Of a stretch of DNA of 61,506 nucleotides, positions 6,796 through 60,376 are shown in pieces (the stretch's first letter is position 1; every line of letters starts with the position of its first letter). Position numbers and translations under genes: made by a program. Location: positions 1-61,506 of the IMG/VR virus record IMGVR_UViG_3300025570_000016. One strand, 5' to 3'. The notes under the pieces were generated by a model that saw only the letters and a program-made list of their open reading frames with translations, was not told the DNA's origin and did no database searches. The stretch comes from a virus (lineage: Duplodnaviria; Caudoviricetes).

Positions 6796-6809
6796 TCCGT
6801 TATAACGGA
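6796..6809. repeat. TCCGTTATAACGGA palindrome 1
   Basis: Perfect 18-bp AATCCGTTATAACGGATT at the exonuclease stop codon. Confidence 0.95.
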
Positions 6810-7544
6810 TTAATCAATGTAATCTTCAATATAATAATCCTCAATAGTCTCTGAAGCATTCTCTCCAAAGAAATTGTGATAGACCTCTATAGCTCTCTCA
6901 ACCTTGTCCTCGCCACGCTTAATGAAATCCTCAGTAGGTCTGAAGACTCCTAGCATCTGAGTAGACTTGTCAATGACTAAGAATATTAATGGTTTACCAA
7001 ATAACTCTTGGTATATGTAAGCTTGACTATCGTAGTTGTATAGGTTAGCAGACCTCTTGAACTTTTTAATGTCTCCCGTGGTCTTTAAATCAATCAAGAC
7101 GTCATTACCTACAATATCTGCCTTACCCTTCCACATAACTCCTTTAATCTCTTTTATGCTAGGAACTTCAAACTCATTACCCTCTGCATAAATCATATCA
7201 AAGAAATCCATATTAGACTTCATGGTATCTGTCCATGACTTAATCTCTGCAACCTCCTTGTCAAGTAGTACAAAGTCTAACTCATTATCTGATATGAAAT
7301 CCTTATACTTCTTCGTGTTACGTGATGATACGTCAAGTGATATGGTATCCTTAGCCTTCTCGGGCTCAAGGATTATCTGATGAAACACTCTACCCTTAGC
7401 GAAGATAGGGTTATCTGCCTTAGACACTCCAAAATCTTTTGGGTTGTTAAGTAGCGCGCTGATGTCTGAGTTAGAGAGATAGTTCTTACCTATCCCTCCG
7501 TAATACTCAGCGTCATCTCTAAGTTTTTCTATAACATCCTTCAT
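6810..7544 (-). CDS. PD-(D/E)xK exonuclease (RecE/Exo VIII, DUF3799-like)
   Basis: YLSNSDI, GRVFH, KGKADIV...IDLKTT, YDSQAYIY; start placed at MKDV. Confidence 0.82.
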   Translation of the reverse strand: MKDVIEKLRDDAEYYGGIGKNYLSNSDISALLNNPKDFGVSKADNPIFAKGRVFHQIILEPEKAKDTISLDVSSRNTKKYKDFISDNELDFVLLDKEVAEIKSWTDTMKSNMDFFDMIYAEGNEFEVPSIKEIKGVMWKGKADIVGNDVLIDLKTTGDIKKFKRSANLYNYDSQAYIYQELFGKPLIFLVIDKSTQMLGVFRPTEDFIKRGEDKVERAIEVYHNFFGENASETIEDYYIEDYID

Positions 7545-7545
7545 C

Positions 7546-59300: not shown

Positions 59301-60340
59301 AGAAAGCGTACAACATGTCTCCTATGTTTAAGGAGCGTGTTAAAAAAGGTTTAGAGGGAGATGTATTTGGTTTAGAGACAGGTTCTGTTACCTTCAAGCC
59401 AATCGGTAAATCTAACACCATGTGGGGTAAAGCTGTTAGAGCTTTCAAAACAGGTGCAGGTTCACCTACAGTGCTTGGTGATATTCTCGGTGTGATGGGT
59501 TATATGATTAACTACAACCGAGACATTGCGAATGGTATGAGTGAGGCTGATGCTCTGAAGAAGTTTGAGAACTATAATGCTACTCAGCAATCTCGTAGAG
59601 CGACTGAGAAGATTCCTTTGCAGATGAATAGTAACTCTTTAGTTAGGGGCTTTACAATGTTTGGTAGCACACTATTTTTGCAGATGAACAAAGTTATGCA
59701 AGGCTTTACAAACGTAATGAGCTCAGCATCTAAAGGTAATATACCTACAGCTAAAGATACTAGAGCTATTATATTAAACCTTGGTGTAGCCAACGTAATG
59801 TTTGCTCTTGCAGCGAACTTAGCGAAGTTTATTAAGGGAGATGATGAGGATAGAGATGAGGCTTTACTTAGAATGAAGGACGCTATGATGGGTTTAAATC
59901 TTATCTATCAAGTGCCTTACTTTGGAGCAGCTATAGAGTCTGCGGTAAATAAATCAAGAGGTATTCATAGACCTGCCGACGTAGCTGTAAACCCATTCAA
60001 CTCTATAATAAGGAAGGTTAAGAAGTTGTCTAAGGACGGTAAGCCTATCGAGGCCGCTACTCGTGTTGCCGTGGAACTTACTATAGGAGCTCAGGTTGAC
60101 CCGTTTGTTGGTTTGTTTAACGGATTTACTGAAGGGTTTGATGAGGGTGTAATGTATGATATTCTTGGTGTGAGTTCCTCTTACCGACCTGCAAAACAAA
60201 CTGAGAGCAAGAAGGGTATAAGTAAATCCGCTTTGAAGAAGGCTAACCCTAGGGCTTACCAAAGATTATATGGCCCGGGCTCAGCTTACTATAAGCAACA
60301 GCAAAGAATTAAAGAGCTGAAGAGAAGACAAGGTAAATAA
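53321..60340 (+). CDS. Giant internal virion/ejection polyvalent protein with a zincin motif
   Basis: 2339 aa; Gly/Ala-rich membrane-like segment, acidic linker, VAHEVTH...EEY. Confidence 0.7.
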   Translation: MNEQVLKDLYDRAVSKGYQKSIEEFNALLQSNENVLADNYGYVQEKGYQKSLEDFSVLVGVKKKEDSVSVSQQVVTDSTIPQQQEEVISSESITLEEPSEYTVVQDAEPSRRYQGDKPISLEKSTAIERVFGKNELTDLFGDIYRAGAAGQAQGGSVDEALELFAKGSDVSDDDIQEFIAAQKRMQSMGESDEMRDFQEIYQENGGGWLGFVKGVAKNPTVIPQLFVSSVSAMATPAVLAGAAGGAAGGALVGGPAGALIGAMGMAGTTLETGLTYAELLQEQLGDKPMTTENIRAVLGDKEAMDEIRFKAVGRGLTIGTIDAITGGLAGKLTTSVVKSTGRKLLGATAGGTVEAVGGSAGEVAGRLVAGQEMDVAEIGFEGIAGTATAPLTVGYGLYKAPKYHINGKDKNAAVSGPDMARFIREANPNDLIKAEVNIVNDDVLQAEYTKKYQEAVTKRDISEADPEMNQPTLDAITELQVELNNLKGKDNQVAKDRAKVIREEIKNLQENPLTEETDAIQEPSAETVDVQEQTGVSEGVREGDTDITAVTEEVTQEEVQEQDVSPELQSEVDKAIADEQLDLTELDQAITEEAATEQAVTEESIAEEVAPEEVVTEDAVAEDAVTEVSISNKEQVNNLIDKVDSNKQQIINSAVKAVNTLKSVLPNFDIIIHDTTDSYNSKMAKVNGNENSRGSFSYSINENGDFVGSIDINLTNARVRTVAHEVTHAVLLKSFGEAPATFSKFKNKISQIIKSDDNVALQEFADLYDRDVAPEEYITELTAMLAEKGTKISPSTLQKIGALINELVSKITNGKLKPFEELSNINELADFFNTVSQAIAEGDVIDSDGVTEKINVDATPNETEVDTGSLTSKSSLIQDLGLTRFKEMSSRIKTGVTIKDVGEVESHLTFADRLVTGKVGTEDYLGGILFAAATGNVWASFKLGKVNSIIKGMPKNKDGFRYLMPALLTESSHMSNKNMVMTSLKLMNDSIKNKSISAKDANARISKALNKKSLVELKEVYDSEMKGKSVNEKNVSDSVNKAVLGSKSTFDLRKSFLGSLLGEANIRTALKFGDLPSYSELANGLAEPITNGHDYGDVLLTIKTDGDLVAVQPKEGDVDYHPSYPWVIRSVMPDGSKAKVETLIFKNSYSAVDLFPQVTNKKGQTLTYDDYIAKYGKERAKSRYLGYIGGGVLSTSLTEVVKTDVKSKSKIKSKAQKKAETSSKGKVKSFVEKARGLGYSDAAISALLTQRGVKPELVAEIVTTEKTAAPKPKLTEELAPGLKRLMKRMQEFKSADAAISALKKSALYKRATDNIKEQLVRDVRKQFGLKEKTAPTPSKLLGVIRDVKKVTLKETELLKIRLQEAVKAAKDAKNFIADTQQALSAEVDALIKKGTLTQKQASAILKKFAKTDVTKSKSVDAFTEYVAKVFNDSEGKYKKGVIKQILTFVDKKSEKAITDSNKARGKGLDAQGQQFFAAAKRVLKRILEDDFDAESIEKKFFPDIDDVLSKEGKLTVKEQNQLDAYIAFESFKGIEDMSVQEVEALLKDLKETRSESISRLKEKLEAEKAEVKALRDEADSNIQQGYSALYNEDGSPLTEEQLRARQNERYNALMSGQLGKAFKLYVSEFPLTKPGKFLTGIANNLKHLGTLTNGLDKVGKFFTKNVYESLNAMESLYAKGLQSTRTKMDEIASSIDGIKNYKDIQSKLASGAHKIDGITTGEGKSLGTNLFNADQLMRVYALSKNDVQREKLKKQGFTDEKLKQIESILGKDVVEFTDKVVEYLSTEYFEQTNDVYSDVNNVNLSYIENYFPTQTIKTKVDSKLLDEGDFNGVFNAQVAPALKERVDLTGDVSILNADFTTTLESHFETIERYKSYAKGVKKLNAIFKFKSVDTLLEQTGLGKVVRNSVNYAVNPNGGQQAIQPTIIDKLMTKYTGFALAFKLAQVVKQSTSFVNAFEDYSYRGKGKSKVPGLDLVMFMMEAAYTAATLPIQIQKAYNMSPMFKERVKKGLEGDVFGLETGSVTFKPIGKSNTMWGKAVRAFKTGAGSPTVLGDILGVMGYMINYNRDIANGMSEADALKKFENYNATQQSRRATEKIPLQMNSNSLVRGFTMFGSTLFLQMNKVMQGFTNVMSSASKGNIPTAKDTRAIILNLGVANVMFALAANLAKFIKGDDEDRDEALLRMKDAMMGLNLIYQVPYFGAAIESAVNKSRGIHRPADVAVNPFNSIIRKVKKLSKDGKPIEAATRVAVELTIGAQVDPFVGLFNGFTEGFDEGVMYDILGVSSSYRPAKQTESKKGISKSALKKANPRAYQRLYGPGSAYYKQQQRIKELKRRQGK

Positions 60341-60376
60341 AAAAAAGGGGAGTCCGTTATAACGGATTCCCCTTTT
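60339..60376. terminator. Bidirectional terminator built on palindrome 9 (core 60353-60366)
   Basis: A8-GGGGAGTCCGTTATAACGGATTCCCC-T4 at the convergence of the two arms. Confidence 0.85.

Follow-up and report, generated by a model that had tools for sequence, protein, structure and literature searches.

The virus record IMGVR_UViG_3300025570_000016 (Duplodnaviria; Caudoviricetes), which was analysed over its whole length of 61,506 bases and is referred to here as the window, contains a 14-mer palindrome, TCCGTTATAACGGA, that recurs between genes and is hereafter called the tag. The primase-helicase of this phage is 74% identical to that of an uncultured freshwater phage, its closest match, and has more distant kin in phages of Flavobacterium, Nonlabens, Polaribacter, Cellulophaga and other Bacteroidota. 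Matches to PHROG families were obtained for the terminase, portal and structural proteins, and the phage also encodes GroEL, GroES and PhoH-like genes. Scans of 50 open reading frames (ORFs) or ORF segments against Pfam and PHROG further identified a helicase, a primase, an exonuclease, an annealing protein, a VRR-NUC protein and PD-(D/E)XK nucleases. Genes are oriented leftward from about 15.6 kb on and rightward from about 16.6 kb on, which places seven copies of the tag in a leftward replication/recombination block and two in a rightward structural block.

Seven exact copies of the tag start at positions 6796, 11433, 13705, 14773, 15778, 33737 and 60353, and no matches were obtained in 100 shuffles that preserved the dinucleotide composition. 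Allowing up to two mismatches adds the copies at 9866 (T6>G) and 12433 (T5>C), which gives nine copies compared to 0.16 expected; no further copies are present in the complete record. The initial annotation, which described a palindrome with nine intergenic copies, was thus correct in both respects: seven copies are exact, two carry one change and all nine lie outside real genes. The local roles that it had given for the nine sites were likewise borne out, as detailed below. Two copies were flagged as located inside genes by a rough ORF caller because it had over-extended the ORFs. The sequence folds better than shuffled controls at eight of the nine sites, with z-scores from -2.7 to -6.6, and the exception is the copy at 15778.

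The leftmost copy (6796-6809, minus strand) abuts the stop codon of an exonuclease-like gene at 6810-7544 and has two pairs beyond the core (-6.9 kcal/mol, z -2.7). The variant copy at 9866-9879 forms the tip of an 18-pair hairpin that resembles an intrinsic terminator and has a U-run behind it (9853-9892, minus strand; -21.1 kcal/mol, z -6.6); this hairpin was called terminator-like by a scan and has a promoter-like match of the Bacteroidota type just downstream (9814-9845, minus strand). At position 9871, the contigs of related strains from the RNA-library runs X17-X19 have a T where the window has a G, and the T restores the perfect palindrome at 9866. The copy at 11433-11446, the tip of a hairpin (11420-11460, minus strand; -12.9 kcal/mol, z -4.9), lies roughly 10-25 nucleotides (nt) past a Bacteroidota-type promoter match just upstream at 11471-11502 (minus strand), consistent with the proposed location of one copy in a 5' leader. 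A second copy of this promoter-like element is located at 13205-13236 (minus strand), and a 25-nt promoter-like core occurs twice on the minus strand, at 11470-11494 and 13204-13228. Altogether, five Bacteroidota-type promoter matches were found in the window versus 1.96 expected, all of which are matches to the consensus only. A related promoter-like element also precedes the leader tag in six of the related genomes and loci described below (G004, G005, G007, G009, L171 and L167).

The following three copies are associated with hammerhead ribozymes on the minus strand. The variant copy at 12433-12446 forms the apex of stem III, with 12 pairs, in a type-I hammerhead (12419-12482; predicted cleavage between 12425 and 12424). 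The copies at 13705-13718 and 14773-14786 form extended hairpins placed directly 5' of type-III hammerheads, in composite elements that cover 13647-13730 (hammerhead 13647-13697; predicted cleavage between 13692 and 13691) and 14712-14800 (hammerhead 14712-14766; predicted cleavage between 14759 and 14758). This is the arrangement that had been predicted, with two copies abutting ribozymes and one in stem III of a third. No Rfam match was obtained in the whole window at the gathering threshold, and no tRNAs were found in it. A relaxed search identified Hammerhead_3 at 14712-14766 (minus strand) with 42.6 bits and an E-value of 8e-7, which is below the gathering score of 48.5, as well as a weak second type-III copy at 13652-13691 (minus strand, 18 bits) and a type-I hammerhead at 12420-12504 (minus strand). 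The match to the RAGATH-1 hammerhead (RF03152) reached 26.1 bits and remained under its gathering score of 56.3. Both type-III copies (RF00008) have the full core (CUGANGA ... GAAA) and a GUC at the predicted cleavage site.

The copy at 15778-15791 is located in the strand-switch region, as had been noted before, with short G/C-rich repeats on one side and iteron-like repeats on the other. The helix is not extended on either strand there, and the fold z-score is -0.9. A tag is found at a similar strand-switch position in G004, G005, L171 and L167. The surrounding region contains about five tandem repeats of GGACGGG (15655-15684), a 14-nt direct repeat (15805-15845) and (AT)11 (16558-16579), and similar C-rich repeats lie ahead of the strand-switch tag in L171 and L208. 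These repeats may represent a replication origin or control region. In the rightward block, the copy at 33737-33750 is the tip of a hairpin after a gene for a virion structural protein of 478 amino acids (aa) (33728-33759, plus strand; -20.5 kcal/mol, z -6.3), which was called terminator-like by the scan, and the copy at 60353-60366 is the tip of a hairpin at the convergent junction after the gene for a 2339-aa protein (60343-60376, plus strand; -24.5 kcal/mol, z -6.4). The latter hairpin is preceded by an A-run and followed by a short run of four U only. Of the three terminators said to be capped by the palindrome, those at 9866 (minus strand) and 33737 (plus strand) were thus called terminator-like by the scan, whereas the plus-strand hairpin at 60353, like the other six copies, was not. 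Overall, six of the nine copies in the window are not associated with a ribozyme.

Relatives of the phage were found through the neighbouring gene at 13732-14688, which encodes a 318-aa protein, for which 563 homologues were found, and an alignment of this protein family then retrieved 80 loci, seven of which are records already analysed as G003-G008. No cultured relative with the gene for the 318-aa protein was present in the phage collection searched. As many as 72 of the 80 loci contain a repeated 16-nt palindrome of their own, of the form G-N5-TT-NN-AA-N5'-C, and at least eight alleles can be distinguished. The six-base arm is TGTCTT in 57 loci, TCCGTT in six, TCTGTT in four, TGTCCT and AGGGTT in two each and GGTATT in one. 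Of the eight loci that lack a strict palindrome, most hold relaxed hairpins in which the five outer pairs are the same and the loop is freer, in the pattern 5 + N6 + 5. Among the genomes, the near-identical fragment G003 has the same 14-mer as the window, whereas GTCCGTT-NN-AACGGAC is found in G007 (13 copies) and G008 (7), GTCTGTT-NN-AACAGAC in G004 (15), G005 (16) and G006 (3), and GTCTCTT-NN-AAGAGAC in G009 (10). The number of copies per relative thus ranges from 3 to 16. No repeated palindrome was found in G010, G011 and G012.

The alleles of different genomes differ by compensatory pair swaps in the core that maintain the pairing (TCCG/CGGA, TCTG/CAGA, TCTC/GAGA, TGTC/GACA, AGGG/CCCT and GGTA/TACC), and the copies within a genome are uniform. 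One copy in G006 is a U-G intermediate between two alleles. Site families can be followed across genomes, with retained flanks and a core that alone switches. For example, the sites homologous to 6796 in G004, G005 and G007 have kept their flanks, each with its own allele, the flanks of the 11433 leader site are conserved in five genomes with the core being the allele of each genome, and the terminators homologous to 33737 in G004, G005, G007 and G008 each contain their own allele. The initial annotation had considered the core invariant, which is true in that one allele is used throughout each genome, but between relatives the core changes with the pairing kept. The outcome is mixed for the refuting condition set there, a freely varying core with pairing alone retained, since the core does not vary freely. 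The uniformity within genomes argues for either sequence-specific reading or concerted copying. The proposal that the palindrome is a phage-wide recognition tag is borne out as far as its genome-wide behaviour is concerned, and both sequence and pairing are constrained.

The tag is not a common element elsewhere. The exact 14-mer was found in 96 stretches in IMG/VR and, among the 84 matches listed, all but two are single and at about the level expected by chance. The two multi-copy matches are unrelated; L022 is a tandem repeat, and L026 is a provirus in which the 14-mer occurs at 4103, 4857 and 5657, each time between -35-like and -10-like boxes, and there looks like a repressor operator. The 18-mer of one allele gave four matches in 596 Gb of bacterial genomes, all of them single, and the tag is thus no host repeat as far as this allele shows. 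For the same reason, REP elements with a RAYT transposase, which should be present in many copies in the host, were rejected for the one allele searched.

To assess whether the hairpin forms in the transcript, 78 sites from eight genomes were aligned in local sense orientation. Of the two pairs of the core that vary, one was UA at 37 and CG at 33 sites and the other GC at 60 and CG at 10 sites, with no unpaired cells. In the flanks, 73% of the positions are paired, compared to 62.5% in shuffled flanks, where none of 500 shuffles reached 73%, and 31-44% when the partner was slid. When the sites were sorted into 36 families according to the likeness of their flanks, the longer helix was on the sense strand in 19 families and on the antisense strand in three, while 14 were equal (22 informative families). 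A simpler count gave 72 G-U versus 11 A-C pairs, which is biased by the procedure used to extend the helix. In the five outer pairs, the single changes comprise six G-U pairs on the sense strand, no A-C pairs and 12 other mismatches. The centre of the palindrome is also biased. At 353 sites in 64 further loci, the sense-strand centre was CA at 228, TA at 54, TG at 43 and CG at 21 sites, with 12 sites of unclear strand set aside; the bias is strong in the early block (CA:TG 197 versus 25) and weakly reversed in the opposite block. In the window itself, the core change at 12433 is a U-G pair on the minus, transcribed strand and the flank mismatches on the transcribed strand are mostly G-U, as the initial annotation had pointed out in favour of an RNA hairpin. 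The pairing and strand-bias tests support its conclusion and show that the hairpin forms on the transcribed strand. The strand results point to selection on this strand and do not distinguish RNA from single-stranded DNA of the same polarity. A census of all short hairpins was not informative since the background was too high.

The association with hammerhead ribozymes extends to the relatives. The window contains three hammerheads, and the relatives contain up to five. In an alignment of 11 type-I sequences, all 242 of 242 paired cells are complementary, nine pairs show changes on both sides, and slid controls reached 21-38%. The minimum-energy fold is the hammerhead structure. Stem I and the tag are invariant in this alignment, whereas compensated changes occur in stem II and at the base of stem III. 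With a covariance model of the 11 sequences (R1), 13 full copies were identified, with one in the window, four in G004, four in G005, three in G007 and one in G008, and no type-I copies in G003, G006 and G009-G012. The tip of stem III is the genome's own allele in 13 of these 13 hammerheads. A pattern search of the genomes and loci identified 96 type-III hammerheads, 69 of which have a strict tag within 20 nt upstream, mostly at 1-9 nt. The others comprise 12 in loci that lack a strict tag and 15 with a different inverted repeat at this place, as judged by eye. In the tag-less genomes G011 and G012, an unrelated hairpin occupies the place of the tag by the type-III ribozyme, for which reason a hairpin next to the open stem III seems to be a part of the ribozyme unit. 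The tag seems to be the preferred hairpin of this unit.

The strands of stem III in the type-III hammerheads comprise a small number of sequences, which do not track the tag allele, and the identity between a tag arm and stem III in the window is therefore probably due to ancestry or coincidence. Stems I and II of the type-III copies differ in sequence between the window and G003 with the pairing kept, as seen by eye. In general, the closed helices of the hammerheads vary with compensation, and the open helix is nearly constant per ribozyme type; stem I of the type-I hammerheads varies at one of six pairs, in one of 11 copies. Due to this constancy, ends produced by different ribozymes could pair and be rejoined or circularised. 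The gene for the 318-aa protein has flanking ribozymes in every genome examined. The ends of the G004 record (59,780 bases; L150 and L156) carry diverged copies of shared genes and a type-I hammerhead (186-249 and 59149-59212), a duplication that could be a terminal repeat or result from two strains having been assembled together.

The tags are placed close to the ends of genes. Based on rough ORF calls, the median distance from the stop codon to the tag is 19 nt, and it is less than 20 nt for 157 of 305 intergenic tags; the median distance from the tag to the next ATG is 67 nt. Only 18 of the 353 tags in the 64 related loci are followed by a U-run, which suggests that terminators are a minority use of the tag. 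Tags are also found within genes. In a Sak-like gene, whose tag site is missing from the window, the same peptide is encoded by TCT..ACA in G004 and G005 and by TCC..ACG in G007, so that the synonymous third positions track the allele. In a helicase gene, it is the amino acids that shift in step with the allele. Neither gene tag is associated with an indel. Together, the allele-matched intragenic tags argue that tags arise by point substitution rather than by insertion and are held to the allele of the genome.

We suggest that the palindrome is this phage's allele of an RNA hairpin tag that caps mRNA ends and whose stem is read by a co-evolving factor, a tentative reading that we favour and yet rate at somewhat less than an even chance. 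In this reading, a large family of uncultured aquatic phages with genomes of about 60 kb places a tag, with a stem of fixed sequence of 5-7 pairs and a loop of 4-6 nt, at the boundaries of cistrons, mainly in the early operon. The comparative data show that the tag is built into three devices that form RNA ends, namely the tip of intrinsic terminators, the tip of stem III in type-I hammerheads and a hairpin 5' of stem III in type-III hammerheads. The upstream mRNA would accordingly end in the tag hairpin after termination or self-cleavage, and the hairpin might both shield the 3' end and, in the type-III ribozymes, help stem III, which is weak with its 5 pairs, to form. One site family would instead have the hairpin at the 5' end of a promoter-proximal leader. 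Lineages would switch alleles through paired substitutions in every copy. The presence of a single stem sequence per genome and the switching in all copies suggest that the sequence of the stem is recognised as well, most probably by a co-evolving factor encoded by the phage, which might stabilise or process the transcript or modulate termination. Reading in RNA accounts for the geometry of the ribozymes, the location behind stop codons, the biases towards the sense strand and the U-G intermediate. The more specific proposal of a genome-specific RNA "address" hairpin, which is read by a phage factor and works with hammerheads and terminators to define and protect transcript ends, is possible but leans towards the doubtful.

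A reader of the tag was sought among the phage proteins. The winged helix-turn-helix (HTH) gene at 19150-19584, put forward in the initial annotation as one candidate, is not supported in this role: its product is 79-82% identical between genomes with different alleles, and it is also present in the tag-less G011 and G010 at 64-67% identity. A model based on an eight-sequence alignment (predicted local distance difference test, pLDDT, 50) was too poor for a fold search, and the protein atlas returned no family for it. The product of the first early gene (14808-15497) is fast-evolving and was modelled with a pLDDT of 80. Its N-terminal domain has weak structural matches to the DNA-binding domains of KorB and Spo0J (Z 4.3-4.7). 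Foldseek gave no match at E <= 0.001 for this protein, a wide structural search reached a Z of 6.3 at most, profile searches of the family against PDB and Pfam were empty and the protein atlas yielded nothing firm. Its identity to relatives is independent of the allele (43% versus 42%), and the family is also present in the tag-less G011 and G010. HTH matches of the DnaA type were obtained in two small proteins (634-1161 and 8525-8827). Among the 50 window ORFs or ORF segments scanned, which do not represent every ORF in the window, no match to the ParB/KorB family was found in Pfam.

Several of the results weigh against the reading of the tag as an RNA hairpin at mRNA ends. No reader was found in these searches, none of the 50 window ORFs or ORF segments contains an RNA-binding Pfam domain, loci with and without tags are not told apart by any gene family within 10 kb, and the allele labels switch 12-13 times on each of four gene trees. 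As to the strand, many sites are homologous between genomes, and the counts therefore overstate the number of independent events; the sense bias is absent in G009 (4 versus 4), and the sixth pair tolerates G-U and A-C equally (16 versus 18). The inner T and A positions are complementary though they are unable both to pair in RNA, and the combination of a fixed stem and a variable loop is the reverse of most RNA-protein hairpin sites and typical of dimeric DNA-binding proteins. A role at mRNA ends leaves unexplained the 33 tags that are robustly inside long genes, at so few homologous positions that they are uninformative on strand bias, as well as the strand-switch copy at 15778, which has no helix extension. 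Strong terminator-like hairpins without a tag are also present in the window (6030-6054, minus strand, and 16381-16404). Finally, in the RNA-library runs X17-X20 the region was represented only by contigs of relatives that are about 90-95% alike, which provided no transcript ends. One contig in X19 ends at 13693, two bases off a predicted cleavage site, an observation from a single study that was not counted as evidence.

Many of these points are accommodated by an operator in double-stranded DNA, in which a dimeric phage protein that controls the early region globally, like those of the KorB/ParB type, would read two half-sites of 5-7 bp. The RNA would then fold because the palindrome lies in transcribed DNA, and terminators and ribozymes would have been built around the operator. 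Reading in duplex DNA explains the fixed stem with a variable centre, including the relaxed loci with five fixed positions on either side of N6, the palindromy that extends to positions unable to pair in an RNA hairpin, and both the intragenic and the strand-switch copies. Alleles specific to lineages are also known from operator/repressor pairs, the early protein with possible structural likeness to KorB and Spo0J and the two small proteins with DnaA-type HTH matches are candidates for such a regulator, and the 14-mer in the L026 provirus lies three times between -35 and -10 boxes. However, the structural matches are below the level at which they would mean more than a common helical arrangement, and the family of the early protein, for which the profile searches were empty, also occurs in genomes without tags. 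Duplex reading of the KorB/ParB type predicts no strand preference, and a symmetric dimer does not account for the 5:1 bias of the sense-strand centre (CA 228 versus TG 43) or the helix extension on the sense strand in 19 families versus three; nor does it explain the tolerance of G-U on the sense strand only, the fixed hammerhead geometry and the clustering after stop codons. We therefore regard an operator as unlikely, although it comes with substantial arguments of its own. The RNA and the duplex-DNA readings both need a co-evolving reader.

A third explanation dispenses with a reader and assumes that recombination or gene conversion between intergenic cassettes keeps the hairpins alike, in which case they would be linkers for gene shuffling, as proposed for the promoter/stem-loop cassettes (PeSLs) of T4-like phages, which are reported to mediate such exchange (PMC4122927). 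The early region is indeed highly plastic. Eight of the nine ORFs called in 11504-13490 have no homologue in any relative examined, and this segment is a region of fast gene turnover. Other intergenic repeats are present, such as the 25-nt promoter core and the near-identical A-rich leader that precedes three small ORFs on the minus strand (about 11660-11690, 11955-11975 and 12195-12222). Furthermore, the type-I hammerhead units resemble dispersed copies, and the phage has an annealing protein and an exonuclease of its own. Against this explanation, a core of 14-16 bp without common flanks is short for homologous exchange, and the site families hold their flanks across genomes while the core alone switches. 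Within the type-I hammerheads, stem II and the base of stem III change with compensation around an invariant tag and stem I, which indicates selection on parts rather than recent copying, and the intragenic tags derive from point substitutions without indels that match the allele of the genome. Copying without a reader thus appears quite improbable.

The least probable explanation, a hairpin in single-stranded DNA of the lagging-strand template or of supercoiled DNA that serves as a priming signal for the primase-helicase or as an N4-like hairpin promoter, would fit the strand bias and the G-T tolerance if replication runs outward from the strand-switch region, as well as the flip in GC skew near 16 kb, the concentration of tags in the early block and the large primase-helicase, but no RNA polymerase was found, host-type promoter matches are present in the early region, and tags in ribozyme stems and on terminators are hard to square with promoters or priming. 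In the same context, the 2339-aa protein was rejected as a virion RNA polymerase since it has no sequence match in PDB and no acidic motif that is conserved across five relatives, and the over-represented word AAAGATTT was rejected as a promoter since it is mostly coding. Two further ideas were discarded. The loop is one base short of a tRNA T-loop, and the likeness is missing in the window's own allele; pairing among tag copies or with a complementary master copy does not agree with the strand-switch copy, the centre of which flips between G004 and G005.

Besides the tags and ribozymes, the surroundings of the gene for the 318-aa protein (13732-14688) attract attention. The protein has no Pfam or PHROG matches and contains invariant acidic, Cys-Gly, His and Arg residues, which we take to recall enzymes of the amidoligase type. 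The nearby gene at 10343-11410 has matches to glutamine amidotransferase and gamma-glutamyl cyclotransferase. Elsewhere, the ORF at 22060-22356 encodes a very basic protein of 98 aa that is conserved in the tag-bearing relatives, has no family match and was undetected by tblastn in G010-G012.

The fact that nearly every ribozyme of this phage family comes with a fixed, lineage-specific hairpin, which is reused on terminators, in leaders and inside genes, provides a testable handle on phage hammerheads, with defined RNA ends, a hairpin that can be used as a bait for a binding factor and at least eight natural alleles that can be used as swap controls. A reader that acts on RNA would give phages a new way to mark and process the transcripts they make, and one that acts on DNA would be a global regulator with unusually close ties to RNA devices. 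Either way, the unit of a hairpin and a hammerhead is a natural and compact part for transcript insulation. If the address hairpin were real, phage hammerheads would gain a first defined partner and role, and address switching by paired substitutions would resemble the switches in promoter specificity in phages with a polymerase of their own.

A lineage-specific hairpin tag coupled to hammerheads is undescribed in the literature searched, which was mostly non-subscription; supplementary alignments outside this scope may hold related hairpins. Hammerheads are common in phages, and their role there has been open ever since they were catalogued (PMC3088659). Several hammerheads flank genes in phage and prophage genomes and have been proposed to cut long transcripts into gene-length mRNAs (Perreault et al. 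2011, PMC3088659). The present case is similar in that several ribozymes are located between the genes of one transcription unit. It differs in that the passages of that study consulted mention no helper hairpin of invariant sequence or genome-specific tag (PMC3088659), and in that the tag is found here also away from ribozymes. The nearest system of repeated intergenic stem-loops in phages is that of the PeSLs (PMC4122927; PMC2839356), which are described as composite promoter-terminator units that act as recombination points (PMC4122927). Both systems consist of small conserved intergenic motifs that are repeated across variable early regions and combine transcription signals with a stem-loop. 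In the phage studied here, however, a promoter match adjoins only one of the nine tag copies (11433), with the terminator at 9866 being followed by a promoter match, and the conserved unit is a hairpin core of 14-16 nt that switches alleles and is tied to ribozymes. The RNA anti-CRISPRs (Racrs) are solitary mimics of CRISPR repeats in phages and resemble the tag in being short, hairpin-forming intergenic units that are often located just past a promoter (PMC10651486). Unlike these, the tag is present in many copies per genome, and the one allele searched for is unrepeated in bacterial genomes.

The nut sites of lambda-type phages, of which there are about two per genome, contain a boxB hairpin that is read by the N antiterminator with a specificity that resides largely in the loop. 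Like the tag, they are phage-specific RNA hairpins that differ between relatives, in the case of nut in co-variation with the protein that reads them, and they share the leader position of the copy at 11433. Here, in contrast, there are 9-16 copies with a fixed stem and a variable loop, some of which are themselves terminators, and no N-like protein was identified. The KorB operators of plasmid RK2 and the parS sites of ParB are palindromes that are read as a duplex by one dimeric protein, with no strand preference. They resemble the tag in that they are lineage-specific and occur as a dozen-odd copies of one perfect palindrome of similar length, some of them intragenic or distant from promoters, but the centre and flanks of the tag are sense-biased, it is built into RNA devices, and a ParB/KorB domain was undetected by sequence. 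A parallel in logic is provided by the 3'-terminal stem-loop of animal histone mRNAs, which is read by the stem-loop-binding protein (SLBP) and the mature end of which results from endonucleolytic cleavage. Both are stems of about six pairs with a four-base loop that are placed just after the stop codon and whose sequence is conserved among many mRNAs. The analogy does not imply homology: no SLBP-like protein was found, and the cleavage in the phage would be carried out by a ribozyme or be replaced by termination. If the proposal holds, the address hairpin would be the counterpart in bacterial viruses of the histone mRNA stem-loop system.

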